IMG/VR virus record: IMGVR_UViG_3300037076_000108
Length of the DNA: 26,379 bases
Strand: one strand, 5' to 3'
Source: a virus
Shown here: piece by piece, positions 2,986 through 26,175 of the stretch
Position numbering within the stretch: the first letter of the stretch is position 1
Layout of the letters: each line of letters opens with the position of its first letter
Translations under genes and position numbers: made by a program
The notes under the pieces: generated by a model
What the model was told of the DNA's origin: nothing
Seen by the model: the letters and a program-made list of their open reading frames with translations, nothing else
Databases searched by the model: none

Positions 2986-3017
2986 TGTATTCTCCGTAAT
3001 CTATTTAGGCACCATTT

Positions 3018-6000
3018 TTAAGGTGTGATGTTGCTAATACCAACCTGCATCTGAGTGGTTGTGATCTTGATTCTGGACAAACCAGTTATATTGTGATCGG
3101 TTTCAGCCGTGATTCTGCTGACGCCCGTATGAGTTTTTGGTACCGTCACCCGGACTCTCAAAACACCAGTGCGTGTGCGTGTCGTTGTGGCCCGAATTCT
3201 GGACACACCTAACTCAACCTTGATGGTGGTTTTTCGGATAGACGAGATACCATTTTGTGTCTTCGTTTTGGTCAAGCGAATTTCAGACAAACCAGTTATT
3301 GTTTGTAGTGCGGTGGCCTGAATTCTGGTTGCACCAATTCGAGTCTTTGTGTTGATAGCCTGAATTCTCGACACACCCAAGTCTGTCATCTGTCTGGTTG
3401 TAGCTTGGATTCTGGACACACCAGTATGTGTCTTGTTTGTGACAATTGCGAGCTTCGATGTTCCATGCTGTACGTGCGGAGTCGTGATCTGGATTCTGGA
3501 GACGCCGAAAGATGCTGGATTATGTCTTACCTGAATTCTCGACAAACCAGTCTGACCTTGGAAGTTGGAATGGCGAAGTGCTGAGACGCCAGTCAGATTA
3601 TGATGTGTTGTTACGTAAATTCTGGACACACCGCTTTGGGTGTATGTTCTGGTCTGACGAATACGAGAAATTCCACTCTGGAACTTTCTCTTTACAATCC
3701 AGTAGTGACCGCCCTGTGTTTGCTGTTCAGCAGTACGCAAGATACGAGTCGTTCCAAATTGATTCTTGATGGTGGTATTGTGAAGAATGACGCCTCTTTC
3801 AGAAGCCAGCATCGTGCGAAGCGCCTGATACGCCGAATCAATCTCAAAATCGTATATCGCCCGATCATAGAAAATTGCGTAGACCAATGTCCCATTGAAG
3901 TACCCCACCGGAGACGAAGACCCGGAACTGGAAGCCTGCTTGTACTCATTGGTGCCGAAAGTTGTTCTTGCATACAAAGATGCCGGTTGCTCTGTTGGTG
4001 CATAGTTTGACGACGGTTTTCCAAAGTACCAACCTGTCGTATTGATCGTAGGAACTACAGGATAATTCGAGTACGTTACGGAATCTGCTCTACTATTGCT
4101 AACATTACCACTCAACTTTCCTTTGTCGAAACGGAGAACGGCCATGAAGTAGTTGCCATCTTTTATAGTCCCTGTTGGGAAGTCTACCGATTTTGCAGTG
4201 TTGTTGTACTGAACCCGGAAGGAGACGCCACCGCCAGCCCGCACGTCTACAGAAAATCCATTGTCGGACGACGAGTTGATACAATTGACAATCGACATGT
4301 TCGTAGAAATGTCGGGACACAAAGCGATGACAAGAACTGAGCACTGAGACAAGTTTAGTGGTACGCCGGTCGCATTAACAATTTCACTATGCGACGAATC
4401 AAGCTGTACGCCAGCGACCACCCACGTGCCATCAATTGTTTCAACTAGAATGGTATTGCCTAGAACGCCGTCGAACTCGCCCATAGAATTCGGACTGACA
4501 TTGTAGACGATTTGCGGGTCCATACCTTCAAGGAAGTTGTACTCTACAACATCTCCAATTGTCGGAATGGTGCCTGGAGTGTAGATTGCCACATCACTGT
4601 CTACACAAAGATTTGAGTGTTTGGTTTCCGGCGAAACAATCAAGTCGGAGAGAACGATATTTTGAAGATTGCCGATCTGCGTGTTGCCGAACTGCGACCA
4701 GTAGTCTTCATTCGGTGGCGGATACGTCTCACCGAAGCCATCAAACGGCGGGAAGCCCACGAATCTGAATTGTGAGATGGATGCTCTGCTCTGGCCGATA
4801 GGTCCAACCAAGGTCGATGATAGAGCGGATTGAATTTGAATATTGGCATCAGGCGAAATTTTTGTGCGCTGGTCTGGGAAGTTTACAAACGAACCGATGG
4901 TGCGGTTCTTTAGGTTTGCGATCTGTGTGTTTCCCGGCCCAGTGGGAGACCAATAATTTTGATTTGGATACGGATACAAAACGTCCCACTTCACATTCGG
5001 TGGGAAGGCAATGAACTTCATCCAGTCAAAATCTTTGTTCTTTGAGCCGATAACTTTCGGAATGATCGTGTTCAGTTGTCTGGTGTAGATTACCCGTCCA
5101 GTATCATTGACTTCCCAAGGTTCATAAAGAGCAGCTTCAATGAGCGCATATGCGGCTTGTAGTTCCGCCTTTTGACCTACAGTCAACGTGCTGTACGTAT
5201 ATGGTAAGTTGGTGTAGGTAACATATGTGCGCCATGCTTGATCTAGTTCCGCTGTGTACAGAGTGTGGAACCGCACCAACTTATTTTCGATCTGAAGAAT
5301 GTTTTCACGAATGATTCCCAAAAAGTTCGTTTCGGGTTTTGACTCTAAAACTACAGAGCCGAACATCATCATGCCAGCCGGATGCAACAGCGCCTTTACC
5401 ACATCACGATACTTGTCAATGGTCTCACCCACTCGAATGTCGTAAGAGAAGTCTTGCCAGTAGTATGAGTCCTGAATGATCTTATTTGAGCTTGCAAAAC
5501 TGTCCGGTGTTGTTGGGAATCCGCCGACGCCGCCGTCTCGTCCCTGCAACCATCGGCCAGCAGTTTGTGCAACGATGCCCAACACAGGAGGTAGCACGCC
5601 GCCCGATCCCTTTTCTGTATGAATGGTAACGGAAGGTGTTGCCAAAAATCCAAGACCGAAGTCAATAATTGCGATGGACTTGATGCCGCCACGCACGTGT
5701 GTGATCGAATATTGTGTAGTGCTGTCTGGAATGGTGATCCACGGAAGATCTACCGTCGCTACTTTCGTTGTTCCGTTGTATGACACAACAGTTCTACGCT
5801 GACCAACTCCGGTTCCGCCAACAAGAGTGATTTCATCACCCACAAAGAAGTCATCAGTTGAAATTTCGTTGGACGACAACAGAATCTCATTTGGGTTTAG
5901 AAGATCGGCATCGGTGTACGAAGAGTGTACATCCGAGAAGAAGTACATGCCCGGAATACAAATAGCGTCATCCATCGGATTGCCGTCTGTGTTGATCGGC

Positions 6001-7214
6001 GCTGTCGCTGGCCCGAAGAATGGCTGAAGATAATAGACCGAAGGTGGAATGCCGCAACTACCAGTAAAATAGGTCTGAAAAATAGACGTGATAATTGCTT
6101 GCGCTGACGACAATGATCCGCCGCCATCAATCGTGATAAGCTCACCTACTTTATAGTTGTCTCCTGGTGTGAGGATCGGCAAATGCTGCAAAAGCTGGTA
6201 AGCAGATTCGTAACGGAGTTGATTATACGGTTCCAATAAGTCCGTCGTAGAACCCAAATCGGTTTGTGGCGGCGGTGGAACGTTATAGACGATCTTAACC
6301 TGTTCTGGAAAGCCAGTATTCGGATCAATTTGGAAGCCGCCAACGATGCTCGAAAGCGTCATTGTCGTGATCGTGCCTTGCGGAATCAACTGCTGTGTGA
6401 CTGACTCGACTTTTGCCGTGGCACCAGAGTAAACACCAACCAAGTTGCGATTCAAATAGTCAAATGTCAAATCCGTAGTCGTCGTCTTCATTACGTTCTG
6501 GACGAACCAAATACCATCAGACGCACGGAACAAGTCAACTTTCGGGTAGTACAGTTCAATCTCTTCGCTGAACAGGCAACGGAAGATGAACCTAAAAGAG
6601 TTCTCTGTGCCTCTCGCCTGATAAAACTGCTTGATGTGCTTGAGAACTTCACGAGGGTTGGCTAAGATCGTACCAGGAATGAGGTACATGAATTCATCTC
6701 TGAAGTATTGGATGAACCGATCTAAGGTGTAGTCAATGTCTCTGTACTCGACCAACTTTTCGGGACTGTAAGAGTCTCGAATTTCCATCAGTGTGTTTGG
6801 CGGCGGGATGTTGTTGGGATCGAATGTGTCAACCAAAGTCACGGTCCAGGTTGTTGGATCATAACTCTTGATCTTGTGCGTATGCCCCTTTGCTGGACCG
6901 TTCAAGCACACAATGAACATATTTCGGTAAGCATTCAAATATGTTGCGGCCTGGGTGATCGTCTCTGTGATTGGCGCTGATGCTTGGGCGACTGCTTTTT
7001 GTGCATCTACGGCTGCTTGTGTAGTCAGAACAACAGTGTTGACCGACGTACCGACAACTTTTCCATTCCATACCGGCGTTCCGAACGTTTCCAGCCATTC
7101 GTAATAGGCTTTCAGAAACGAGACGAACATCGGATCGGTTTCCTGTACGAAGTCAGGAAGCTGGCCCGAAATTATCTGTGATATTGTCCTTGGTGTTTTT
7201 GGAATCGTCGGCAT
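3018..7214 (-). CDS. Giant baseplate wedge protein, T4 gp7-like, with C-terminal 11-aa tandem repeat array
   Basis: 1398 aa. Segment FYQARGTENSFRFIFRCLFSEEIELYYP matches T4 gp7 FYSTKGIEASYKFLFKVLYNEEVEIEIE (recalled). Gene order gp6-gp7-gp8 as in T4. The last ~190 aa are ~17 repeats of TGVSRIQxTTx. Start tightly coupled to gp6-like stop (TAA-GGGGTAAGGA-ATG). Confidence 0.8.
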   Translation of the reverse strand: MPTIPKTPRTISQIISGQLPDFVQETDPMFVSFLKAYYEWLETFGTPVWNGKVVGTSVNTVVLTTQAAVDAQKAVAQASAPITETITQAATYLNAYRNMFIVCLNGPAKGHTHKIKSYDPTTWTVTLVDTFDPNNIPPPNTLMEIRDSYSPEKLVEYRDIDYTLDRFIQYFRDEFMYLIPGTILANPREVLKHIKQFYQARGTENSFRFIFRCLFSEEIELYYPKVDLFRASDGIWFVQNVMKTTTTDLTFDYLNRNLVGVYSGATAKVESVTQQLIPQGTITTMTLSSIVGGFQIDPNTGFPEQVKIVYNVPPPPQTDLGSTTDLLEPYNQLRYESAYQLLQHLPILTPGDNYKVGELITIDGGGSLSSAQAIITSIFQTYFTGSCGIPPSVYYLQPFFGPATAPINTDGNPMDDAICIPGMYFFSDVHSSYTDADLLNPNEILLSSNEISTDDFFVGDEITLVGGTGVGQRRTVVSYNGTTKVATVDLPWITIPDSTTQYSITHVRGGIKSIAIIDFGLGFLATPSVTIHTEKGSGGVLPPVLGIVAQTAGRWLQGRDGGVGGFPTTPDSFASSNKIIQDSYYWQDFSYDIRVGETIDKYRDVVKALLHPAGMMMFGSVVLESKPETNFLGIIRENILQIENKLVRFHTLYTAELDQAWRTYVTYTNLPYTYSTLTVGQKAELQAAYALIEAALYEPWEVNDTGRVIYTRQLNTIIPKVIGSKNKDFDWMKFIAFPPNVKWDVLYPYPNQNYWSPTGPGNTQIANLKNRTIGSFVNFPDQRTKISPDANIQIQSALSSTLVGPIGQSRASISQFRFVGFPPFDGFGETYPPPNEDYWSQFGNTQIGNLQNIVLSDLIVSPETKHSNLCVDSDVAIYTPGTIPTIGDVVEYNFLEGMDPQIVYNVSPNSMGEFDGVLGNTILVETIDGTWVVAGVQLDSSHSEIVNATGVPLNLSQCSVLVIALCPDISTNMSIVNCINSSSDNGFSVDVRAGGGVSFRVQYNNTAKSVDFPTGTIKDGNYFMAVLRFDKGKLSGNVSNSRADSVTYSNYPVVPTINTTGWYFGKPSSNYAPTEQPASLYARTTFGTNEYKQASSSGSSSPVGYFNGTLVYAIFYDRAIYDFEIDSAYQALRTMLASERGVILHNTTIKNQFGTTRILRTAEQQTQGGHYWIVKRKFQSGISRIRQTRTYTQSGVSRIYVTTHHNLTGVSALRHSNFQGQTGLSRIQVRHNPASFGVSRIQITTPHVQHGTSKLAIVTNKTHTGVSRIQATTRQMTDLGVSRIQAINTKTRIGATRIQATALQTITGLSEIRLTKTKTQNGISSIRKTTIKVELGVSRIRATTTRTRTGVLRVRVTVPKTHTGVSRITAETDHNITGLSRIKITTTQMQVGISNITP
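3036..3602 (-). repeat. About 17 tandem 33-bp coding repeats (consensus on + strand approx ctgRattctSgacacacc) encoding TGVSRIQ-type 11-aa units
   Basis: The period is visible directly in the DNA and in the translated C-terminus of the 1398-aa ORF (GVSRIQITT / TGVSRIQATT / LGVSRIRATT ...). Confidence 0.8.
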
Positions 7215-7224
7215 TCCTTACCCC

Positions 7225-9030
7225 TTACGCATTCGCCAAAACCATTACTGATACGTCTGTCGGTTGGATGAACAAAATATTATTCCTAACCGGGATGATG
7301 TCATTCTGTTGCGGAGTCATTGTCAAGGAGACGTTGCCAGCACTATCCACTTGATATGGCATGAATTCCTGCAATGTAATCTCCCCTGTTGTGTAATTTA
7401 TCGTGCCGCAAGACGCACGCACTACGGCGTCTGGAATACCAATGCCACTCTGAACCAACTGTACATTCCCATTACTGTCATCTTTTAGGTTGTAAGTATA
7501 CCCATTCACATACGGGACCAATAACTTTGGATCATGAACGACAACAAAGCTGGACGACGAAAGCGTCCCTGGCACAACCGGATTGAAAAAGTTCAAATCG
7601 TAGTTCGCAATCAAGTCCAACGCTGGCTTGAAAAGTTTTTTAATCTGAAGCGTGCTCAAATTGTTTGTGATACTTGAGTCGCTGCTGTCAATAGCGGACA
7701 GGAATTTGGAATAGCGAAACTCCAAGTCGAACTTATCCAAGTTTAATGCGGCATAGTTGATAATGGAGTTGTACGCTGCGTTTCTGATATCTCCTTCTGT
7801 CTTGAAGGTATTTGCCGGATTGTACTTCACGATACAATTGACAATGATGAAGGTATAATCCGGGTCGATGAATTGTGGGATGACAGAAACAATGTTACGT
7901 GGGCGGATGAGGTTGGACAAAACCAACGACTTCGCCTCTTCGGTCACAACGAATCCATTCACCGGCTTAATCGAAATGAAGACCTTACCATATTGCGGCG
8001 GTACGTTCTCTTCGCCGCCCCATACAGTTACAGAGTCGGCATTTGAATAGTTCTCTGTAACCTGAAGCACATAGTCTGCCGCCGTGACTGCACGCCCCTG
8101 CGTCTCAAAATTTTTCGGAGCGGAGAAACGAATTTCATCTGTGGTCTCTGCGTCCAATCCACCAGCAGCCGGTACCAGTGTCACGACCGTTGTAAGGTTG
8201 GCAGGATAGCCAGCCAAAGGAATAGTCGGAGAAAAGGACGATGCGCCGTTTGCAATAGGGCCGTCCGAAATGACGTAATCTACGATGACGATGTTTCCAT
8301 CCACCAAGGCACTACCAATAACACCATCACCGAATTTGATTTCAAACTGCTGGTTTTCAACTTCTTGAAGGAAGTACGCATTTGTATCAACCCTCAATTC
8401 GAGCAAGTTATCAGCCAAAACATAACTCGTCAACGCCGTATTAGTTATTGAATGCTGAACACGAACGACTATCTGGCTGGTGTCAATGCTCGAACTCGGC
8501 AGCAAAAATCTCTGATTTGGTACTGTAGAGTCCACGGTGATTCTGTAAGTGTATGGAATACCATTGACTAATGTTACATCCGGGAATACGAATTTGCCGT
8601 TTTGAACTGTGGTTCCATACGCCCGATCCGTAATGAATGTATAGACCTTGCCATCCACATTAGAAGAAAACGTGGAATTCTCTTCGATGACTGCACCCAT
8701 TGCGTTGTCGTTAGGTGTGATCGTAATACTTACCGTCGCCTGTGCAGATGTTACGGAACGTGGCGTGTAATTCATCATCTTCGCCAGCGAGACAACAGAA
8801 GACCGAAGGTTGGCCGAATCCAGGAACATTTCGTTGGCGATCATATTCATGTAGAAAGCATTGTAGTGTGTGTTATACGCCAAGATGTCTAACAATACCG
8901 ACAGGCCAGCGCCATCGAAGTCGTAGTCCTTGAACTGCGTCTGTGAACGAAGGTAATCCCGGAGAGATACTTTGATTGTGTCGAAATCCAAATACGAGAC
9001 AAGAAGTTTTGATGAGTTAATTGTTGACAT
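7225..9030 (-). CDS. Baseplate wedge protein, T4 gp6-like (baseplate J family)
   Basis: 601 aa. N-terminal DYDFDGAGLSVLLDILAYNTHYNAFYMN...ANLRSSVVSLAKMMNYTPRS is characteristic of gp6/gpJ-like baseplate proteins. Sits between the gp25-like and gp7-like genes. Confidence 0.75.
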   Translation of the reverse strand: MSTINSSKLLVSYLDFDTIKVSLRDYLRSQTQFKDYDFDGAGLSVLLDILAYNTHYNAFYMNMIANEMFLDSANLRSSVVSLAKMMNYTPRSVTSAQATVSITITPNDNAMGAVIEENSTFSSNVDGKVYTFITDRAYGTTVQNGKFVFPDVTLVNGIPYTYRITVDSTVPNQRFLLPSSSIDTSQIVVRVQHSITNTALTSYVLADNLLELRVDTNAYFLQEVENQQFEIKFGDGVIGSALVDGNIVIVDYVISDGPIANGASSFSPTIPLAGYPANLTTVVTLVPAAGGLDAETTDEIRFSAPKNFETQGRAVTAADYVLQVTENYSNADSVTVWGGEENVPPQYGKVFISIKPVNGFVVTEEAKSLVLSNLIRPRNIVSVIPQFIDPDYTFIIVNCIVKYNPANTFKTEGDIRNAAYNSIINYAALNLDKFDLEFRYSKFLSAIDSSDSSITNNLSTLQIKKLFKPALDLIANYDLNFFNPVVPGTLSSSSFVVVHDPKLLVPYVNGYTYNLKDDSNGNVQLVQSGIGIPDAVVRASCGTINYTTGEITLQEFMPYQVDSAGNVSLTMTPQQNDIIPVRNNILFIQPTDVSVMVLANA

Positions 9031-9076
9031 TTATTATCATCCACCCTGCATTTTTTCCATATTGAATTGGCTTGTG

Positions 9077-9601
9077 TTAATGTATCGTTCTCCCGATAAC
9101 AACACGAGATAATCCCATCGCCTCACACCATTGTTTAAGACCAACCCTTTCTATACGCCTACCGTCAAGATGAATGGCTACAAAAGGTTTTTCCTTTGAT
9201 TCAGCAATTCTTTCACAACTTTCGGAAGTAAATTTTCGTCCTATGCCCGCCTGTCGAATTTTCTCTTTTGCTTCTGGAGTATGCTTTCTCCCTTCCATAA
9301 CTCCATCACCACCAACTGAACTGTTGTATCCGGCGACAAAAGTATTCTGTTCTGATATGGCGGTACGCTCCATATCTTTGGCTTCGTTCGCAGACCAACA
9401 CACTGCCACAATTTCATGTGTCCAGCAATCCGTTCCGTACTTTCGGATAGCGTTCCAAAGTTTCACCGTTTTAGTCGTTTTTCTTGATGGAATACGGGCC
9501 AATTTTATATGTTCTCTCCATCGCTCTTCCATTGTTTTGGAAGAGTATCCAATATATGCCTTTCCGGTCATCGTGTTAGTATGCTTGTAAATGGTGTACA
9601 T
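9077..9601 (-). CDS. GIY-YIG homing endonuclease (Seg/I-TevI-like), free-standing
   Basis: N-terminal IYKHTNTMTGKAYIGYSS...RWREH is a GIY-YIG motif. Inserted between the gp25-like and gp6-like genes. Its start overlaps the gp25-like stop (TAATG). Confidence 0.8.
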   Translation of the reverse strand: MYTIYKHTNTMTGKAYIGYSSKTMEERWREHIKLARIPSRKTTKTVKLWNAIRKYGTDCWTHEIVAVCWSANEAKDMERTAISEQNTFVAGYNSSVGGDGVMEGRKHTPEAKEKIRQAGIGRKFTSESCERIAESKEKPFVAIHLDGRRIERVGLKQWCEAMGLSRVVIGRTIH

Positions 9602-9996
9602 TATCTCAATCTCTGGAGGAAGAAGGAAATGTTCTGCACCTGAGTGATGTTCAGCACATAAAAGGTGATGTTCACATTGTACCCGTCTTCGTTATAGTTC
9701 TCCGTTACAACCACACTTTGTAACTTCGCTCTTGGCTCAAAGTTCTGAATCACATCCGTGATCGACCGTTGGATGCTCAAAGCTGTGATGCTTGTAATGT
9801 TCTCAAACAACATCGCCGTCACGTTGCACCCAATCTCAGAATGGAAGGGGCGCTCATAATGCTTTGTGAGCACCAGATTCATGACAGAGGCTTTGACGGC
9901 ATCAAAATCGTACAAGATACCGATGTCCTTTTTCACGGGGTTCGCAATAAAGGACAGATTCAAGTCGCTGTAACGTTGGTAAATGTTCTGTGGCAC
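9601..9996 (-). CDS. Baseplate wedge protein, T4 gp25-like (GPW/gp25 family)
   Basis: 131 aa, same size as T4 gp25. ERPFHSEIGCNVTAMLFENITSITALSIQRSITDVIQNFEPRA aligns with T4 gp25 SRPFDPEFGCDLSDQLFENMTPLTADTVERNIESAVRNYEPRI (recalled). GTG start follows a CTAAATAGGAG motif. Confidence 0.85.
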   Translation of the reverse strand: MPQNIYQRYSDLNLSFIANPVKKDIGILYDFDAVKASVMNLVLTKHYERPFHSEIGCNVTAMLFENITSITALSIQRSITDVIQNFEPRAKLQSVVVTENYNEDGYNVNITFYVLNITQVQNISFFLQRLR

Positions 9997-10048
9997 ACTC
10001 CTATTTAGTGCGTCAACTTAGGAACATCAATTACTTGAGTGAGATATA

Positions 10049-10339
10049 CTAACCGCCGTTGGCAAAGACGTTTGGAGAGCCTACAGCATCGAAATCGCCG
10101 CAGGAAATTTGATCGCCAATTCGAGCAACTGGTTTGTTGTTTGCAAAGACGGTCGGAGACCCCGTAGCCTGGAGACCATCGTGGCAAACCGGGCCGCAAC
10201 AATGCGTCGGCCAATGGTCGCCTACACGGTGAATTGGAATGGCATTTGCGAAAACATTTGGACTAGCGAGATCATTTGGGCGGGCGGGGAAACAGCCGTG
10301 GCCGGTGCTCATGTCACCAAGACGAACGATATTTGGCAT
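10049..10339 (-). CDS. PAAR-repeat spike-tip protein (T4 gp5.4-like)
   Basis: 96 aa, Gly/Cys/His-rich, with repeated SPNVFANxxPIHRVGD / SPTVFANNKPVARIGD / SPNVFANGG units typical of PAAR domains. Lies immediately downstream of the gp5-like gene. Confidence 0.8.
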   Translation of the reverse strand: MPNIVRLGDMSTGHGCFPARPNDLASPNVFANAIPIHRVGDHWPTHCCGPVCHDGLQATGSPTVFANNKPVARIGDQISCGDFDAVGSPNVFANGG

Positions 10340-10345
10340 ACGCTG

Positions 10346-10633
10346 CTATTTAACAGCGAACGGCATCGTGATAGCCTTGAATAAAAAGAAGAGAAGCAAG
10401 ATCGTACAAAGCAACTTTGCAAAGAAGACGGACTTGTCTCGATACCATTGGCGCTGTACTGCGACAAAGCCGTCACCAAATGCCCACCATATCAGACGGA
10501 ATGGCGCACATAGGAGCCACCATACGGCGCTGAAGATGAATATAGCAACGTGCTTGATGAAACGGCCAACATACCAGAACACAATGCCGATGAAAAGTAC
10601 AATCCAGCCAAGGAAGTTCATGATGAATATCAT
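10346..10633 (-). CDS. Small integral membrane protein (about 3 TM helices), unknown function
   Basis: 95 aa, strongly hydrophobic (FIMNFLGWIVLFIGIVFWYVG...). Packed 11 nt after the gp5-like stop and 6 nt before the PAAR start. Confidence 0.5.
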   Translation of the reverse strand: MIFIMNFLGWIVLFIGIVFWYVGRFIKHVAIFIFSAVWWLLCAPFRLIWWAFGDGFVAVQRQWYRDKSVFFAKLLCTILLLFFLFKAITMPFAVK

Positions 10634-10644
10634 TGTAGCACGTT

Positions 10645-12045
10645 TTAGCAGTCTTTTTGCGATGCCAAAATTGGTGATGGATCTCCCTTCGTTTCCTTCA
10701 CCGGATCTGAATACGATTCACTTCGGGATTCCGTCATGCCCAATGATGCCGGGAACGGTGGAATGTTTGGTGCCGATGGACCAGATGGAGTTGCATGTTG
10801 GCTGACGCCGGAATTCCAATGCACAGCCGGGGCATCGCCAGAAAGCGTGCCGCCGCCCGTCATGCTGAATGAACCACCAGCCGATTGCACAATGGAACCA
10901 CCAGCAGCATCAGTCATCGAACCACCGGCATCACGAGTGCTGCTTCCGCCAGCTTTCATAGTCTGGCTTCCACCCACTTCAAGATCGTCACTTCCTGCAA
11001 TCTTCACTGTGCGACTGCCGCCGATGTCCGTAAGATAATCTCCCTTCACCTTCTCGGTGTAGTTGCCTTGGACGTGAACATTCAAATCTCCATCAACCTG
11101 TAAGTTTGCATTAGACCGGCAATAGATGTTAGCTTCACCATCTACTGTGATGTTCATGTTGTTTTGAAAGTGTGAATACGAATTTTCCATCGTAACTTCA
11201 AACTTCTTACCGACAATTTTGATGACGAGGTTTCCTTCTTGGTCAATTTCGATTCGAGTCAGTGTACGATGGGCTAAGTGAATGCGCTCTGCGCCGGGTG
11301 TGTCATCAATTTCGATAACGTGGCCAGATTCAGATTCATAGACGTGATTGTACGGATATTGCGCCGCATAAGCGGACGGCGGCTCAACCCATTTTCTTCC
11401 AGGCTTCGGATGTACAAAGGCAATAGGAACACCACCGAATTCTGGACCTGGACGGCCAATGTCACGTTGCCGTTTCTGGACGCCGATAATAGTATCTTCA
11501 ACGTTTTCCGCACGGGCGAGACGATTCACATCTGATTCACCAATGACGCAGCCCCACGGATGAGTCTGTCTCGGATAGAGCGATGCGGTGCTTTCGTTTT
11601 GAACTTGTGCGCCGGAACCATCATTCGGATAGAAGCGTGACTTGATTTTACGTGGCGCTGTGTCTGTGTTGTGAAATGGCTTGCCCGGATCATAGAAACC
11701 AATACCCGGTTGCGGAGCTTCTTCCGGGATACCAGCGATGGTGCCAAGAATGATTGGCTCTTGAGCGCTTTGATTGTCTTTGAAAAATCCAAACACCCAT
11801 GTACCTTCGGCGGGGCCGGTCGGTGAATGTCCCAAGCCGTTCATTCCCTGATTCCAGGTGATTGGCTGATAGACGTAGGCCCAATGCAATTCGCACGTCG
11901 GTATCAACTGCTTGTCTTCTGTGTGAGCACCGAGAATGCGTACTCGTAGCCGCCCAAGTTTTTTGGGGTCTCGCCGGTCTTCGACAACGCCTACCCACCA
12001 GTAGAAGCTGTCCTTTCCCATGAAATTCGTTTCTGATTTTGCCAT
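10645..12045 (-). CDS. Baseplate hub / central spike protein, T4 gp5-like (OB-fold N-domain plus C-terminal beta-helix, no lysozyme domain)
   Basis: 466 aa. N-terminus FYWWVGVVEDRRDPKKLGRLRVRILGAHTED is a gp5/VgrG-type OB fold. C-terminus has GGSxT-type repeats (VGGSQTMKAGGSSTRDAGGSMTDAAGGSIVQSAGGS) like the gp5 triple beta-helix. Followed by the PAAR gene. Confidence 0.8.
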   Translation of the reverse strand: MAKSETNFMGKDSFYWWVGVVEDRRDPKKLGRLRVRILGAHTEDKQLIPTCELHWAYVYQPITWNQGMNGLGHSPTGPAEGTWVFGFFKDNQSAQEPIILGTIAGIPEEAPQPGIGFYDPGKPFHNTDTAPRKIKSRFYPNDGSGAQVQNESTASLYPRQTHPWGCVIGESDVNRLARAENVEDTIIGVQKRQRDIGRPGPEFGGVPIAFVHPKPGRKWVEPPSAYAAQYPYNHVYESESGHVIEIDDTPGAERIHLAHRTLTRIEIDQEGNLVIKIVGKKFEVTMENSYSHFQNNMNITVDGEANIYCRSNANLQVDGDLNVHVQGNYTEKVKGDYLTDIGGSRTVKIAGSDDLEVGGSQTMKAGGSSTRDAGGSMTDAAGGSIVQSAGGSFSMTGGGTLSGDAPAVHWNSGVSQHATPSGPSAPNIPPFPASLGMTESRSESYSDPVKETKGDPSPILASQKDC

Positions 12046-13911: not shown

Positions 13912-13985
13912 TGGAGCGGAGTGCGAGACTCGAACTCGCATCTTGAGACTGGCAGTCTCAGGCACAGCCCTTATACCAACCCCGC
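13912..13985 (-). tRNA. tRNA-Gly(GCC)
   Basis: Manual fold: acceptor GCGGGGT/ACTCCGC, T-arm GCGAG-TTCGAGT-CTCGC, anticodon arm TGAGA-CTGCCAG-TCTCA (anticodon GCC). 74 nt with encoded CCA. Confidence 0.7.
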
Positions 13986-14000
13986 AAAGGGAATAAATTT

Positions 14001-14074
14001 TGGAGCGGACGGCGGGACTCGAACCCGCATCTCAAGATTGGAAATCTTGGGCACAACCTTTATACCACACCCGC
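14001..14074 (-). tRNA. tRNA-Gly(UCC)
   Basis: Paralogue of the previous tRNA on the same scaffold: acceptor GCGGGTG/CGTCCGC, T-arm GCGGG-TTCGAGT-CCCGC, anticodon arm CAAGA-TTTCCAA-TCTTG (anticodon UCC). 74 nt with CCA. Confidence 0.7.
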
Positions 14075-14398
14075 CCATTTCACCGAATGTCCTTCAATAC
14101 CACACTGCATCAAATAATGAGCAGCGTTACAAACACGACAGAGCACATTGAATTTGGTTATGTCAATCTTTCGATTGGCAATATCTCGAATGTGTTGTGT
14201 ATGATGAGCAACCCGGCGCTCTGCACTGCCGCCACCATCAATATGATTTATTTCCAATGCCTCAAAAACATCACATCCACATTGACAGCAGATCGTCCCA
14301 CCAAGAACATTCATTGCTTTCCTACGAAGAGTTTGGAGGTAGTCCCGATAATAACCTTCACGAACTCCCTGCTTCTTTTCGTAGGCTTTTCTCACCAA
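14060..14398 (-). CDS. HNH endonuclease
   Basis: 112 aa. CCQCGCDVFEALEINHIDGGGS...NVLCRVCN is an HNH motif. TTG/GTG start abuts a CTAAATAG motif. The 3' end overlaps the tRNA-Gly(UCC) 5' end by about 15 nt. Confidence 0.7.
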   Translation of the reverse strand: MVRKAYEKKQGVREGYYRDYLQTLRRKAMNVLGGTICCQCGCDVFEALEINHIDGGGSAERRVAHHTQHIRDIANRKIDITKFNVLCRVCNAAHYLMQCGIEGHSVKWAGVV

Positions 14399-14403
14399 TC
14401 TAT

Positions 14404-14799
14404 TTAGGCAACGTGAAAAAGACGAAGAAGGATCAACGTCGAATTCCAGATCACCAGCAACGAAAACAGCGTATTCACGAAGCGCCAGCCCTTCTCCGTG
14501 TTGACAGACGACCGAAGAGTCATGAACCCAACAATCACCAGGACCATCAGGAGCTTTCCAACCAGTAAGCCGGAAAGCAATCCAAGCGCCGGGAAGAAAC
14601 GTGAAATGACTGGATTTGCTTCACCCAATCCACACGAAAACCCGGTCAACGTAGTCATCACGTCGAGAGCTTGCAAAAAGACAAATGCCTGAAAGCCTTT
14701 GTTCGTTGTTAGCGTTGAAACGTTAACCACGAATCCATAGTACCACACTCTGGTACCGATGTCAAGGGTTTGCTGCTTAATCTCGTTTGCGAACGCCAA
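14404..14799 (-). CDS. Multi-pass membrane protein, unknown function
   Basis: 131-aa ORF with several hydrophobic stretches (LGLLSGLLVGKLLMVLVIVGFMTL; LFSLLVIWNSTLILL). The start may be an internal Met. Confidence 0.4.
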   Translation of the reverse strand: MAFANEIKQQTLDIGTRVWYYGFVVNVSTLTTNKGFQAFVFLQALDVMTTLTGFSCGLGEANPVISRFFPALGLLSGLLVGKLLMVLVIVGFMTLRSSVNTEKGWRFVNTLFSLLVIWNSTLILLRLFHVA

Positions 14800-14971
14800 A
14801 ACGAATGATGCCCCAGAACCCGCCCCAGATCACCTTGAAGTTATGACCGTAACCCTTGCCATTGAAGAAGTTTACCACGAACGGCAACACGATCAGAAAA
14901 ATGAATGGATAAAGCAGCCACATCAAGATTCGATACAGCACCAATCCAAAACCGATGTCGAAAAAGCCCAT
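14777..14971 (-). CDS. Small membrane protein (2 TM)
   Basis: 64 aa, LVLYRILMWLLYPFIFLIVLPFVVNFF. GGGAG SD 9 nt upstream of the ATG. Confidence 0.5.
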   Translation of the reverse strand: MGFFDIGFGLVLYRILMWLLYPFIFLIVLPFVVNFFNGKGYGHNFKVIWGGFWGIIRFGVRKRD

Positions 14972-15040
14972 TTGGTTACTCCCTTACAAAACCACAATAC
15001 ATGAAGAAACCATCATATTCATTGTTACCCTTATCCGCCA

Positions 15041-15250
15041 CTACTCGAATCCGATGATTGGTCGGAGTTGTTCCAACACTTCTGTTGCCTGCTTTTTGCT
15101 ATATCTCTGAGAATGTACGGAGTAACCTTCTCCCCACCAGATGTAAAGGAACGTAGATCCGCTTCGGCAATGTGCGTTGACGCCGTAGATGGCTGAGAGA
15201 ATAGGTTCAAGCTCGGCCTCAATTCCCTTTAGTGTCGTTGTTAGTCGCAT
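15041..15250 (-). CDS. Hypothetical small protein (69 aa from internal Met of the 115-aa ORF)
   Basis: ORF only. Overlaps the alternative-frame ORF 15031-15222. Confidence 0.3.
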   Translation of the reverse strand: MRLTTTLKGIEAELEPILSAIYGVNAHCRSGSTFLYIWWGEGYSVHSQRYSKKQATEVLEQLRPIIGFE

Positions 15251-15425
15251 GTTTGTCTCTATCTTGAAAATAGAGGTCGAGTTCATCAAGCAGCACTTCT
15301 CCATTGTCGCCGTCGCCACCAGACTTCCAACAGAAGTAGTCGCTGAAGTCATGCAGATCAACTTGCTCGATAAACCTAAAAATCTCAACAGATCGAGGAT
15401 CGTGCGGGTCCATTACATTCCCCAC
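15219..15425 (-). CDS. Hypothetical acidic protein
   Basis: 68-aa ORF rich in D/E. Confidence 0.35.
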   Translation of the reverse strand: MGNVMDPHDPRSVEIFRFIEQVDLHDFSDYFCWKSGGDGDNGEVLLDELDLYFQDRDKHATNNDTKGN

Positions 15426-15649
15426 ATTTTTTTCAGAAGTGTCTTTGCCTGTTTGTCGTATTTCTTTGGGAGGTCTTCGATGGTAACACCAAGATAGGTG
15501 AACAGAGAAGACATGTATTCGTCCCTATACATCGCATCATTCATTGACCATGCAGTTATGAGAGTGAGCTTACCGTCTACCAGATCGTAGAAAGCATCGG
15601 CTTCGCCCAAATCATCATCACAAAAGGATTTCACGTAAATTGTTCGCAT
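15413..15649 (-). CDS. Hypothetical protein
   Basis: 78-aa ORF following the ArfB-like gene. Confidence 0.45.
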   Translation of the reverse strand: MRTIYVKSFCDDDLGEADAFYDLVDGKLTLITAWSMNDAMYRDEYMSSLFTYLGVTIEDLPKKYDKQAKTLLKKMWGM

Positions 15650-15670
15650 ATTTGTCCTTTACGAAGTAAT

Positions 15671-16051
15671 CTATACGCCACCATTCTCCAGGTACTCAAT
15701 CTTGATCGTGCCGTCTTTCAGACCCTCGTCCACCATCCGGTCAACACGAGCTTTGATTTGTTCTGGAGTTTCTGGGATTTGTTGCCCCATTCGCTTGGCG
15801 CATTCGACTTTGTGCCATTGCTTAAACTTTGGGGTGTTGGCAAGACGCACGAGCGCATCTTCCCGGTTTCTTGTGTTACTTCGGTGGTCTCTACCTTCTC
15901 CGACCGCACCGGAAGCCGTATGGATCAAACGGACGCCACTATTGCTGGTATCCTTGCCGCCACCGCCATGCCCGCCTACGCTAAAGGTCTGCATTTCCAG
16001 ATCCTTCATCGTGACGGAAAATAAAAGTTCTTGCTTCTTCTTTTCACTCAT
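15671..16051 (-). CDS. RF-1 domain / ArfB (YaeJ)-like peptidyl-tRNA hydrolase family protein with degenerate GGQ motif
   Basis: SGAVGEGRDHRSNTRNREDALVRL aligns with E. coli ArfB [27 protein letters not shown] (recalled). At the catalytic GGQ position the sequence reads SVGGHGGGGKD. GGAGTGAAATC SD. Extended -10 promoter 85 nt upstream. Confidence 0.7.
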   Translation of the reverse strand: MSEKKKQELLFSVTMKDLEMQTFSVGGHGGGGKDTSNSGVRLIHTASGAVGEGRDHRSNTRNREDALVRLANTPKFKQWHKVECAKRMGQQIPETPEQIKARVDRMVDEGLKDGTIKIEYLENGGV

Positions 16052-16135
16052 GATTTCACTCCATCTCTGTTGTTAAACACACGTCTGCCGCTTTGGTGCG
16101 TAGCTAAGATGGAGATTGAAATTTCATCTACAGTA

Positions 16136-16144
16136 ATTATACCA
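16136..16144 (-). promoter_or_regulatory. Extended -10 element TGGTATAAT (sigma70-like) upstream of the ArfB-like gene
   Basis: The reverse complement of attatacca is TGGTATAAT. It lies immediately downstream of the MVP terminator and 85 nt upstream of the ATG at 16051. Confidence 0.5.
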
Positions 16145-16146
16145 CA

Positions 16147-16182
16147 ACGAAAAAGGCGGATCGCCCCGAAGAGCGACCCGCC
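16147..16182 (-). terminator. Rho-independent terminator after the MVP-like gene
   Basis: On minus-strand RNA: GGCGGGUCGC-UCUUCGGG-GCGAUCCGCC (9 of 10 bp, CUUCGG-type loop) followed by UUUUUCGUUGUGG. Sits 19 nt after the stop at 16201. Confidence 0.7.
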
Positions 16183-16200
16183 ACCGGCTGCAACGTTGGC

Positions 16201-23707: not shown

Positions 23708-23786
23708 TGGTAGCCGTGGTGGGACTCGAACCCACACTGTTCAGGTTTTGAATCTGTTGTCTCCTGCCAAATTGGACTACACGGCT
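23708..23786 (-). tRNA. Atypical tRNA or tRNA-like, paralogue of the previous one; best fold gives anticodon CAA with a weak 3-bp anticodon stem
   Basis: 79 nt. Perfect acceptor AGCCGTG/CACGGCT and T-arm GTGGG-TTCGAGT-CCCAC. The anticodon region ACAGA-TTCAAAA-CCTGA pairs poorly. Possibly a pseudo-tRNA. Confidence 0.4.
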
Positions 23787-24044
23787 ATAAACTTGTTCAG
23801 GAACTTTCACGATGAAGGGTAGTGTTTGAACCTCCGACCCAAACCTACCGTACTCAGAATTGCGTAGCATCTTAACAATACGCAATTTCCGGTAATACGA
23901 CTTCACTTCTTCTCGTGTTACTTCCACAAATGATTTCATAATTTGTTGAGCCAGGGACGGACCATCGAACCCGTATCGGTTGCCTTTCAGCACGCCCAAT
24001 GTAGCGCCCGGTTTTACCTTTGTTAAACTACCCTGACCCAAGTT

Positions 24045-24132
24045 TGGTGGCCGGGGTGGGACTCGAACCCACACACCCTTGCGGATACCAGCTTTTGAGG
24101 CTGGCGTGTCTACCAGTTCCATCCACCCGGCC
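24045..24132 (-). tRNA. tRNA-Leu(CAA)
   Basis: 88 nt, class II. Acceptor GGCCGGG/CCCGGCC, GGTAGAC D-loop, anticodon arm CCAGC-CTCAAAA-GCTGG, long variable arm, T-arm GTGGG-TTCGAGT-CCCAC, CCA. Confidence 0.75.
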
Positions 24133-24310
24133 AAAACTCTTTGAAAACTGCAAGAACAGTGAGGCTTGCCATTTCTAGCAAGAAGGTGAAGGCTTGCAGT
24201 TTTCAAAATTCATTCCTATCGAAACAAAATCACAACAAATGCCAAGAGCACAACCAAACCCGCTATCAGCGTCAGGGTGCTATCTACCGGCCCTTGTCGA
24301 TCAAACCTGC

Positions 24311-24457
24311 TCATAAATTCGCTTCGATCTCTGACCAGCATTCCTTACAGCGTGCGAATAGATCGCCGTAGCGGTGGCGCATCTCACGGTGGCAGTCACA
24401 ACACCACCAGACCAACTCACATGCCTCTTCGCCCTTCTCTTCGCACGTACAAGGCAT
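24311..24457 (-). CDS. Cys-rich mini-protein (48 aa)
   Basis: MPCTCEEKGEEACELVWWCCDCHREMRHRYGDLFARCKECW. The ATG lies 2 nt after the stop of the upstream zinc-ribbon gene. Confidence 0.35.
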   Translation of the reverse strand: MPCTCEEKGEEACELVWWCCDCHREMRHRYGDLFARCKECWSEIEANL

Positions 24458-24459
24458 TT

Positions 24460-24654
24460 CTACCACTGGTTCCACGGTACCTCGTCTCTGGAAAAACGAA
24501 CCGTCTTCGGATGCTTCGACGTATACAGCCGACTCTGAAACTTTCTGGAGAGAATGATCTCTTCTACAGAAGCCGGTCTCGGCTCGTTCTCTTTCGGAAG
24601 CGTGCCGCAATTTGGACAGCGCCGCCCAACGAACTCTTCATCACAACACTTCAT
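24460..24654 (-). CDS. Zinc-ribbon mini-protein (64 aa)
   Basis: MKCCDEEFVGRRCPNCGTLPKENEP... starts 6 nt after the tRNA-Leu(UAG) 3' end. Confidence 0.45.
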   Translation of the reverse strand: MKCCDEEFVGRRCPNCGTLPKENEPRPASVEEIILSRKFQSRLYTSKHPKTVRFSRDEVPWNQW

Positions 24655-24660
24655 AAAATC

Positions 24661-24747
24661 TGGTGGCCAAGGTGGGAGTCGAACCCACACGCCCTTTCGA
24701 GCACTTGCTTCTAAGGCAAGCGAGACTGCCAATTCCTCCACTCGGCC
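24661..24747 (-). tRNA. tRNA-Leu(UAG)
   Basis: 87 nt, class II. Acceptor GGCCGAG/CTTGGCC, anticodon arm CTTGC-CTTAGAA-GCAAG, long variable arm, T-arm GTGGG-TTCGACT-CCCAC, CCA. Confidence 0.75.
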
Positions 24748-24752
24748 AAACT

Positions 24753-24947
24753 TTAAGAAAACACATTCTGCGCCTGATTGTACGCCCAATCTGGCGGGTC
24801 TTCACACAGCGTCCATGCAAAATGAATCGCTGACAACTGCAAACTCAAAATCCTCGTCTTTGTGGTTTCGGGAATTTTGCTTTCCTTCACGTAAAGATCT
24901 TTGATGCGCTCGTACTGAGCCTGGACTTCATTCTCCGGTCGAATCAT
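24753..24947 (-). CDS. Hypothetical small protein (64 aa)
   Basis: GAGGAA SD before the ATG. Overlapping stop/start (ATGA) with the upstream HNH gene. Confidence 0.5.
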   Translation of the reverse strand: MIRPENEVQAQYERIKDLYVKESKIPETTKTRILSLQLSAIHFAWTLCEDPPDWAYNQAQNVFS

Positions 24948-25285
24948 AATTCCTCTACCAATTCATTATACTCCTGTTCTTCCAATTGTCTATCGGCCTC
25001 CAGGAGCATCCGCTCTTCGTAATGATGGATCGCATGACAATTGGCACAGACGCATTCGCATTTCGCAATTTCTTCTTTCACTTGCTTGAGCGACTTCTGC
25101 AACATCACCGCAGAACCAATCTCGAATTTTTTCTCGCCTGCGCCTGTATGATGGAATTGCAAAGCAGCCGGATGGTTGAACCCACATCTACTGCATGACA
25201 GCGTTTTCTTATACTCTGCAATCCACTGACGAACTTCTGCACGTTTTGCCGCTCGTCTTATTGCGGCGGCTGGACTCTTAGACAT
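24944..25285 (-). CDS. HNH-family endonuclease
   Basis: 113 aa. CSRCGFNHPAALQFHH...KCECVCANCHAIHH is a CxxC...HH...CxxCH arrangement. Confidence 0.6.
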   Translation of the reverse strand: MSKSPAAAIRRAAKRAEVRQWIAEYKKTLSCSRCGFNHPAALQFHHTGAGEKKFEIGSAVMLQKSLKQVKEEIAKCECVCANCHAIHHYEERMLLEADRQLEEQEYNELVEEL

Positions 25286-25310
25286 TACTCATATCTATCA
25301 TCCAAGAAAA

Positions 25311-25386
25311 TGGTCAGGGAGGTTGGAGTCGAACCAACGGCATCTCGCTTCCAAAGCGAGAACTCTGGCCTCTGAGCTACTCCCTG
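25311..25386 (-). tRNA. tRNA-Pro(UGG)
   Basis: 76 nt. Acceptor CAGGGAG/CTCCCTG, D-stem GCTC/GAGT, anticodon arm CTCGC-TTTGGAA-GCGAG, T-arm GTTGG-TTCGACT-CCAAC, CCA. Confidence 0.7.
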
Positions 25387-25501
25387 ATGGTCGGACAGGG
25401 GAGAATGGTTACTCCCTAACTACGATGCTTAACATGTGGTCATTCGTAGTCGTTACCGCTGTAAGGGCGGGATAGGTTCAAACAACCCCTGCTGTCCTAG
25501 T

Positions 25502-25593
25502 TGAGTAGATGAGACTTGAACTCACAAAAGCGCTTTCGCCTCACGCTCACCGGGTTGCGAATCCGGCGTGTTTCCCACTTCCACCACTACTCA
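25502..25593 (-). tRNA. tRNA-like element, class-II length, non-canonical anticodon arm (identity undetermined, possible pseudo-tRNA)
   Basis: Acceptor TGAGTAG/CTACTCA, T-arm GTGAG-TTCAAGT-CTCAT, hairpinned long variable arm. Anticodon region CCGG-ATTCGCAAC-CCGG gives either a 9-nt loop or an A:C mispair. No encoded CCA. The HNH gene stop lies inside its 5' acceptor strand. Confidence 0.35.
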
Positions 25594-26069
25594 AACACTC
25601 TTCGATCTCGTCTCGTCTTCAATGTGTGGCAATTAGAACAAAGTAATTGAAGATTTTCTAACCGATTATCACGATGGTCGCCGTTAATGTGATCCAACTC
25701 AGTCACCTTTTCTCCAAACCATTCCGTCAATCCACATTGGGCGCACACATCAATCAACATATTCTCACGAATCAATCTTTTTTTAAGAGCATCCGAATTC
25801 ATCGAAACACAATTTTTTATCAAATATGATTCAATGTTCTTCTTCGGACCAGTTCGTTTACCCTTACTCCATGCTTGGCCGGTGAAATGAGAAGTATCAA
25901 TCAAAAATTTTTCTGCCAGCAATCGTAGGTACGACTGTAATCCAGTAGACCCTTTTCGATCTAACTTCCGGCATACATCAGCCCAAGAAGAACTTCCATT
26001 CACTACCACACTGAGAGATTCCTTCGTGTGTTTATGATATTTTGGCATACGCAGATTATTTATACTCAC
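25587..26069 (-). CDS. HNH homing endonuclease
   Basis: 160 aa. C-terminal CAQCGLTEW...LDHINGDHRDNRLENLQLLCSNCH is an HNH motif. GTG start inside a hairpin whose loop carries TATAAATA. Confidence 0.8.
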   Translation of the reverse strand: MSINNLRMPKYHKHTKESLSVVVNGSSSWADVCRKLDRKGSTGLQSYLRLLAEKFLIDTSHFTGQAWSKGKRTGPKKNIESYLIKNCVSMNSDALKKRLIRENMLIDVCAQCGLTEWFGEKVTELDHINGDHRDNRLENLQLLCSNCHTLKTRRDRRVFE

Positions 26070-26087
26070 TGCGTATGCCAGATTGAT

Positions 26088-26175
26088 TGGTCGCCGGGGT
26101 GAGGCTCGAACTCACACGCCCTTTCGGACACCAGACTCTCATTCTGGCTTGTCTACCAAATTCCAGCACCCGGCG
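26088..26175 (-). tRNA. tRNA-Leu(GAG)
   Basis: 88 nt, class II. Acceptor CGCCGGG/CCCGGCG, GGTAGAC D-loop, anticodon arm CCAGA-ATGAGAG-TCTGG, long variable arm, T-arm GTGAG-TTCGAGC-CTCAC, CCA. Confidence 0.7.

Follow-up and report, generated by a model that had tools for sequence, protein, structure and literature searches.

The DNA under study (the window) is a 26,379-nucleotide stretch of a viral genome, IMG/VR record IMGVR_UViG_3300037076_000108, whose minus strand encodes a small protein with the catalytic domain of peptide chain release factors (RFs). The product is a genuine RF-1 domain protein and belongs to a large family of ∼120-amino-acid (aa) "mini release factors" (mini-RFs) that is restricted to phages. 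Its catalytic loop has been rebuilt: both glycines of the GGQ tripeptide are kept and the glutamine is gone. Rather than being peculiar to the gene in the window, this loop is shared as a conserved motif, under selection, by an entire phage clade, a point missed by the initial annotation, which was made from the sequence of the window by itself. Mini-RF relatives are already known as annotated phage RF-1 proteins; what is new here is the conserved Gln-free (Q-less) subtype.

The open reading frame (ORF) had initially been assigned to the RF-1 (GGQ-type) domain proteins, and profile searches bore this out. Pfam PF00472 matched at 40.5 bits, exceeding the gathering score of 35 (E value, 3e−10), with residues 11 to 74 aligned to profile positions 5 to 69 of 116. 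A match to PHROG 3122, "RF-1 domain peptide chain release factor," had an E value of 1.1e−18 (68.6 bits; residues 2 to 86 on profile positions 16 to 100 of 136), and phmmer matched RF1 chains in the PDB at an E value of 1e−7. An AlphaFold2 (AF2) model built with 64 homologs (pLDDT, 83.7) had strands at residues 18 to 25, 37 to 44, and 49 to 53, followed by the RSxxxN helix at 59 to 71 and two extra helices. Foldseek aligned this model with domain 3 of RF1/RF2 at a probability of 1.00, but with an E value of only ∼1e−3 and a TM score of ∼0.45. The RF1/RF2 models TIGR00019, TIGR00020, and NF001859 scored 34 to 39 bits versus cutoffs of 370 to 423, with all matches confined to domain 3, and the PrfH model TIGR03072 scored 26.2 bits versus 166.65. 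A six-frame search identified no second RF-like gene in the window.

Domain 3 of RF1/RF2 is the best match in both sequence and structure. It aligns without gaps over the loop and has in common with the window protein the β-β-β-α fold, the glycine pair, and the motifs VRxxH and RSxxN. Unlike RF1/RF2, the window protein lacks domains 1, 2, and 4, and is thus unable to read stop codons, and it carries Gly in place of the catalytic Gln. In RF1/RF2, this Gln is the target of methylation by PrmC.

The HMMER alignment with T. thermophilus RF1 was gapless over the loop, placing G29-G30-G31 on the GGQ tripeptide, H28 on the preceding Pro, and G32 on the following Gly. The rebuilt loop takes the place of the usual R-[A/S]-G-G-x-G-G-Q-x-x-N-K-x-x-x, and the protein sequence includes ...TFSVGGHGGGGKDTSNSGVRLIH..., matching what the initial annotation had quoted. 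Gln is found in the protein at positions 7, 21, 78, 90, 91, and 98 only, leaving residues 22 to 77 Gln-free, so that no register can place a Gln in the loop. The claim that the catalytic Gln had been replaced within a Gly-rich loop is thus upheld, and the options first offered for it (an altered, an inactive, or a divergent variant) were the right set. The Walker A motif reads GxxxxGK[ST]. A Walker A reading of GGHGGGGKD was rejected on inspection, as the motif needs GK[ST] and the loop reads GKD.

A profile search of 1.84 billion cluster representatives identified 3590 matches with E values of <1e−3, 460 of them <1e−10, and nearly all of the best 150 of the 3590 were 70 to 190 aa long. With tblastn, 212 of 50,697 phage records were matched, nearly all from Mycobacterium phages plus two Tunturiibacter phages, and the matched genes were annotated as "RF-1 (domain) peptide chain release factor." Tunturi_4 gp53, Nanosmite gp140, and ScottMcG gp204 shared 44%, 41%, and 35% identity, respectively, with the window protein. 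Matching by fold in BFVD added more small RF-1 proteins from phages, including those of Acinetobacter, Pseudomonas, and Cellulophaga. Among 185,579 bacterial and archaeal species, each covered by representative genomes, the Q-less subtype was essentially absent, being found only on two tiny contigs from metagenome-assembled genomes. The phage matches, the shared size and C-terminal extension, and the near-absence of the Q-less subtype from bacterial and archaeal genomes together define the mini-RFs as a phage family.

The family architecture consists of one RF1/RF2-domain-3-like catalytic domain and a family-specific C-terminal helical extension, without a codon-recognition domain or an ArfB-type tail. 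For the window protein, AF2 predicted a basic helix at residues 74 to 88 and an acidic helix at 96 to 113 within the extension. Positions F76, W79, V107, K117, E119, and G125 were conserved in 122 GGQ-type and 18 Q-less sequences and could be aligned with the members from cultured phages. The PHROG 3122 proteins ScottMcG gp204, Nanosmite gp140, and Tunturi_4 gp53 follow the same plan (115 to 126 aa, an RF1-like domain, and an F..W...V...K.E..G extension) and are likewise phage-borne, often in tRNA-rich genomes. They differ in having kept a G-x-G-G-Q-x-x-N-K loop where the window protein reads G-H-G-G-G-G-K-D-T, and the name that they bear is an annotation.

To compare loops, the top 150 representatives from the profile search were taken together with the window protein. 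The tripeptide was GGQ in 122 of these sequences, GGS in 17, GGG in 6, and GGT in 1. Eighteen sequences, 17 representatives and the window protein, had a loop of the window type (KD type) with the consensus T-V-x-G-x-G-G-[G/S]-G-K-D-T-S-N; G29, G30, G32, K33, and T35 were present in all 18, and D34 and S36 in 17. Among the matches listed, all of the close homologs (at least 120 sequences, 64 to 100% identical) carried GG[G/S/A]GKDTS. Residue 31 in the window-type relatives was Gly, Ser, or, once, Ala, while G29 and G30 were invariant. When the 18 Q-less sequences were set against the 122 GGQ sequences, the difference was confined to residues 24 to 37. From the GGQ type to the Q-less type, Arg is exchanged for Thr/Ser at position 24, Ala/Ser for Val at 25, Gln for Ser/Gly at 31, Asn/His/Lys for Gly at 32, Gln/Arg/Val for Lys at 33, Asn for Asp at 34, Lys for Thr at 35, Thr/Arg/Val for Ser at 36, and a variable residue for Asn at 37. 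Conserved alike in both loop types were D17, F23, G27, G29, G30, R41, H44, S47, R57, N62, A66, F76, and W79.

Comparison of the window gene with eleven relatives gave pS values of 0.74 to 0.88 (saturated) and pN values of 0.13 to 0.46, with a dN/dS of 0.04 for the closest pair. The loop codons included all synonymous forms for Gly and both TCN and AGY for Ser, with the amino acids unchanged. As synonymous sites are saturated while the loop residues are fixed, the loop is a selected variant, held under strong purifying selection, and not a product of decay. The missing Gln, taken alone, could be expected of a decaying pseudogene, a sequencing or assembly artifact, or a chance ORF, but such an origin has practically no chance of being correct. 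An identical protein (P0001) is encoded on 10 independent metagenomic contigs from different samples, and these contigs, the homologs with the same loop, and the dN/dS of ∼0.04 together rule out decay and artifact; the ORF is also intact, has a Shine-Dalgarno sequence, and forms its own terminator-bounded unit.

Loss of the Gln was also found in loops that are otherwise canonical. GGS was present in P0130/P0143, P0224/P0236, and P0170, GGT in P0202, and GGM in L075 (positions 5980 to 6378), within the motifs GGSK[KR]N, GGSNQN, GGSKQN, GGTKQN, and GGMNKN. Within each of the pairs P0130/P0143 and P0224/P0236, the two proteins have the Ser in common although their identity is only 52%, so these are conserved lineages rather than sequencing errors. 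The existence of several independent Q-less lineages means that the Gln side chain became dispensable in the mini-RF family more than once, and roughly one-sixth of the representative clusters lack the glutamine in some form. Another homolog from the profile search, P0263 (260 aa), has an insertion of ∼140 aa in place of GGxGGQ, reading TFSA-[...HHCDNPTCINIDHLYL...]-NQNKTQSGVRIIH, which by eye resembles an HNH endonuclease. It looks like a homing element, intron, or intein-like insertion lying in frame, exactly at the codons of the catalytic loop.

A neighbor-joining tree calculated with the loop masked was star-like, with the Q-less sequences scattered across it. Identity outside the loop was 0.415 within the Q-less type versus 0.396 between types (473 of 2000 permutations); thus neither the masked tree nor the identity test supports monophyly of the Q-less type. 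In a bootstrapped tree only shallow nodes were resolved, among them one placing the GGGGKD clade of the window as sister to the GGQ protein P0121 (77%). P0121 shares with this clade a PETPEQI-type insertion in the C-terminal region, so that loop type and indel character are in conflict. The pattern could have arisen by reversal, by indels in parallel, or by homologs exchanging the loop segment.

The initial annotation had named the protein ArfB, and this label does not hold. The ArfB model NF006718 (NCBIfam) scored 13.4 bits versus a cutoff of 100, with the match limited to residues 53 to 72, whereas the RF1/RF2 models gave their 34 to 39 bits across the whole domain. The similarity to ArfB that had been pointed out in RSNTRNREDALVRL is real, but it represents the generic RSQxxN helix of all RF-1 domains and is the sole stretch that the ArfB model matches. 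The ∼24-residue insertion that ArfB carries between strands 2 and 3 was absent from alignments of the window protein and the three cultured-phage homologs. Residues 90 to 126 have a net charge of −3 and could not be aligned with the ArfB tail, for which we take the net charge to be +13. Tail residues Arg118, Leu119, Lys122, Lys129, and Arg132 are required for ribosome binding and hydrolysis by E. coli ArfB (PMC3950681), and no counterparts of these five were identified in the window protein. ArfB membership was therefore rejected on the model score, the missing insertion, and the missing basic tail. It follows that an ArfB/YaeJ ortholog sensing the empty mRNA channel through its C-terminal tail is a very improbable identity for this protein, even though it is a small standalone GGQ-type domain with a local RSQxxNR-xxAL-xRL helix similarity. 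As small, standalone hydrolases that rescue ribosomes independently of the codon, ArfB (YaeJ) and ICT1 offer the nearest functional analogy for what a mini-RF might do, although ArfB has an inserted helix, the GGQ, and a basic tail probing the empty mRNA channel (PMC3950681), and the window protein has none of the three.

Two further groups of truncated release factor homologs that act in rescue, C12orf65/mtRF-R and PrfH, gave weak sequence and fold matches to the window protein. C12orf65/mtRF-R rescues split large subunits together with MTRES1, and PrfH rescues damaged ribosomes together with RtcB. Both differ from the window protein in keeping GGQ and in having partners or recognition domains of their own, while no linked partner gene was seen in mini-RF loci; an RtcB-like family was not among the 14 most recurrent neighbor clusters over 61 mini-RF loci. 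Neighbor clustering over these 61 nonredundant loci identified no fixed partner gene, the commonest neighbor being helicase-like (14 loci). The most frequent neighbors overall were helicase-like and other replication-type genes, the latter judged by eye from their sequences.

The window derives from the genome of a large T4-like myovirus. On its minus strand, positions 1423 to 12045 hold baseplate genes of the gp5, gp25, gp6, gp7, and gp8 types, and close protein homologs are encoded on the metagenomic contigs IMGVR_UViG_3300022555_000003 (242 kb) and ERZ25039501 contig_20886 (400 kb); no nucleotide-level relatives of the window were found among sequenced phages. As initially noted, the RF gene is located among tRNA genes, 12 of which were identified in the window (13912 to 26175), including two tRNA-Gly genes at 13912 to 14074 on one side and a tRNA-Ser gene at 19627 to 19716 on the other. 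These do not form a tight array and are interspersed with small ORFs over 12 kb; two tRNA-Leu(CAA), three tRNA-Ser, and five tRNA-Leu genes were counted. Across the family, tRNA genes were present within ∼6 to 10 kb of 12 of 17 Q-less loci and 23 of 65 GGQ loci.

What the rebuilt loop could do was considered in light of the known roles of GGQ residues. The GGQ glycines cannot be dispensed with because of the backbone geometry that they allow; catalysis is the work of the main-chain amide of the Gln, and activity is abolished when Pro replaces this residue; and the side chain of the Gln helps pack the pocket in which water is selected as the nucleophile (PMC4691834; PMC6742477; PMC5799190). In addition, the title of PDB entry 9mtr describes a GGS-mutant RF1 crystallized in the 70S A site. 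By analogy, the window protein may be a codon-independent factor that inserts into the peptidyl-transferase center, probably still cleaves peptidyl-tRNA, and helps in ribosome and tRNA recycling, the likeliest reading, to which an even chance is given. The loop, at the tip of the domain, would enter the peptidyl-transferase center of a ribosome or 50S subunit holding peptidyl-tRNA, irrespective of the codon. Cleavage of the peptidyl-tRNA ester would still be promoted there, with a nucleophile pocket enlarged for want of the Gln side chain, and activity would not depend on methylation of the Gln by PrmC. Such a factor would free complexes that have stalled on degraded host mRNA or through the action of defense nucleases, and so keep ribosomes and tRNAs available during infection. 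Residue 31 is never Pro, so the catalytic main-chain NH is retained; continued ester cleavage appears most likely given this residue, the invariant glycines, on whose backbone conformation insertion into the center depends, and the conserved VRxxH and RSxxN ribosome-contact motifs. The location of the gene amid tRNA genes and genes of early or replication type fits with the proposed recycling role.

Several points weigh against this proposal. Loss of the Gln is conventionally equated with loss of the hydrolase, as in Dom34 and MRPS35 (PMC6514570). The conserved basic flanking residues R24 and K35 were lost along with Q31, and the loop may as a result sit differently in the peptidyl-transferase center or stay outside it. 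A domain lacking both an mRNA-channel sensor and a codon reader would have no evident way to select stalled ribosomes, and the association with tRNA genes may simply reflect the large, tRNA-rich genomes of these phages. In the literature, phage RF-1 domain proteins were found mentioned only at the level of annotation, and no experimental or functional work on them was found.

The combined loss of R24, Q31, and K35 would also be expected of a catalytically dead protein that binds the A site or peptidyl-transferase center. Such a binder might inhibit translation or serve as a decoy, function as a protector or hibernation-like factor, or mark stalled ribosomes for splitting in the way of a Dom34-like adaptor; this main rival is a possible reading but a doubtful one. 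Precedent exists among Gln-less homologs: Dom34/Pelota, most baeRF-1 families, and MRPS35 are natural peptidyl-hydrolase domains that have lost the Gln and are read as nonhydrolytic ribosome binders, with Dom34 and most baeRF-1 families proposed to block the center and MRPS35 regarded as structural (PMC6514570). Their catalytic loops, however, show little conservation or differ in length (PMC6514570), whereas in the window-type proteins the loop retains its exact length and both glycines and is conserved more than any other part. A tight binder of the center would equally be expected to conserve the glycines and the new loop strongly, but the restriction of residue 31 to Gly, Ser, or Ala, never Pro or a bulky residue, points to a constraint on the pocket that a blocker does not obviously need. 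Scaffold and extension are also common to both loop types and their genomic contexts are similar, and a single job fits this better than a releaser and a blocker would. Further, a general A-site blocker would hit phage translation too, and no linked splitting GTPase or hibernation factor was present among the recurrent neighbors.

The new invariant residues K33, D34, T35, and S36 do not resemble mere degeneration and could be taken to indicate a new chemistry or target, such as passing the nascent chain to nucleophiles besides water, acting on another ester (aminoacyl- or modified tRNA), or binding phosphate or RNA away from the ribosome. With a small residue at position 31, the pocket that normally keeps out nucleophiles bulkier than water would be opened (side-chain role, PMC4691834), and the gene is located among tRNA genes. 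Such neofunctionalization is nevertheless unlikely. It is pure inference; D34 was also present in 11 of the 122 GGQ-type loops, so not every new residue is subtype specific; GKD does not match Walker A; and the remainder of the domain keeps its ribosome-contact motifs, which argues for the ribosome as the target. A related and similarly improbable proposal is that GG[G/S]GKDTS is an alternative catalytic module with an opened pocket, a different range of nucleophiles or substrates, and immunity to factors that target the Gln, the two loop types having been swapped in phage-host conflict. If this were so, the proteins would escape dependence on methylation by PrmC or factors that trap or modify the GGQ Gln. 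The interspersed loop types would then represent repeated switching or exchange of loop cassettes in a conflict over the translation apparatus.

To our knowledge, GGQ has been described as universally conserved in every ribosomal peptide-releasing protein. The roles of its Gln are debated and include packing of the pocket for water selection, catalysis by the backbone amide, and methylation. The Q-less mini-RF clade is thus a natural, selected counterexample to universal conservation and offers a natural test of what the Gln is for. If Q-less proteins still release peptides, they would provide natural proof that the side chain is dispensable, as well as a tool with which to examine how nucleophiles are selected; otherwise, they would represent a new class of phage-encoded ligands of the peptidyl-transferase center. 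In either case, standalone release factor domains are widespread in the translation toolkit that large phages carry beside their tRNA arrays, and have gone unstudied.

The features of the RF gene and its surroundings are given in Table 1. On the minus strand, the strong terminator (16182 to 16155) comes first, followed by the candidate extended −10 sequence TGGTATAAT and then, directly downstream, the RF gene. The description of the gene as driven by an early promoter received no clear support: the extended −10 has no −35, and promoter-like sites in the region were not enriched over shuffled sequence (5 found versus 6.3 expected).

Table 1. Positions of the mini-RF gene, its parts, and nearby signals in the window
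Feature	Position	Strand	Basis or remark
Complete mini release factor gene, 126 aa	15671..16051	−	ORF list and sequence; stop codon 15671-15673; ATG at 16051
Shine-Dalgarno GGAG, 7 nt 5′ of ATG	16059..16062	−	Direct reading of sequence
Candidate extended −10 TGGTATAAT (TGnTATAAT), without recognizable −35	16136..16144	−	Direct reading; the consensus scan missed the site for want of a −35
Intrinsic-terminator-like hairpin, 12-bp stem, 9 G-C pairs, T-run	16155..16182	−	Ends the upstream 848-aa gene and divides it from the RF gene
RF-1 (GGQ-type) catalytic domain, residues 11-74	15830..16021	−	Pfam match, AF2 secondary structure, Foldseek
Rebuilt catalytic loop, residues 24-38, S-V-G-G-H-G-G-G-G-K-D-T-S-N-S	15938..15982	−	Gapless RF1 alignment and column comparison
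Codons of G29-G30-G31 (G-G-Q position)	15959..15967	−	Alignment to RF1
Family-specific C-terminal extension, residues 75-126	15674..15829	−	AF2 model, conservation, cultured-phage alignment

Downstream of the RF gene lies a 78-aa ORF (15413 to 15649, minus strand) that starts 21 nt past the stop codon of the RF gene, behind an AAGGA Shine-Dalgarno sequence of its own. It had no Pfam or PHROG match, and its homologs were confined to copies of this phage. The gene at this position in L008, one of the two closest relatives, encodes 76 aa and is not detectably related. The 78-aa gene is thus specific to this phage and was rejected as a conserved operon partner.

Upstream of the RF gene is an 848-aa ORF (16201 to 18747, minus strand) that matched the shoulder domain Pfam MVP_shoulder (E value, 1e−19) and the vault repeat Vault_3 (E value, 1e−7) and had no PHROG match. 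The only relatives in which such a major vault protein (MVP)-like gene directly precedes the RF gene were the two closest ones (L008, 82% identical; L010, 74% identical), and a gene resembling those of vault proteins is unusual in a T4-like phage. Adjoining the tRNA-Ser gene at 19627 to 19716, a 145-aa phosphatase of the dual-specificity/PTP type (Pfam PTP-NADK, PTP-SAK, and Tc-R-P) is encoded at 19178 to 19615 on the minus strand. The tRNA-rich block also contains, on the same strand, genes for a thioredoxin (20557 to 20928) and an R2K-type ATP-grasp protein (21990 to 22757; Pfam R2K_3/R2K_2), as annotated on the identical contig L004. Within the baseplate region, a GIY-YIG homing endonuclease gene (9077 to 9601, minus strand) was identified between the gp25-like and gp6-like genes, and the corresponding region of L008 carries both GIY-YIG and HNH genes.

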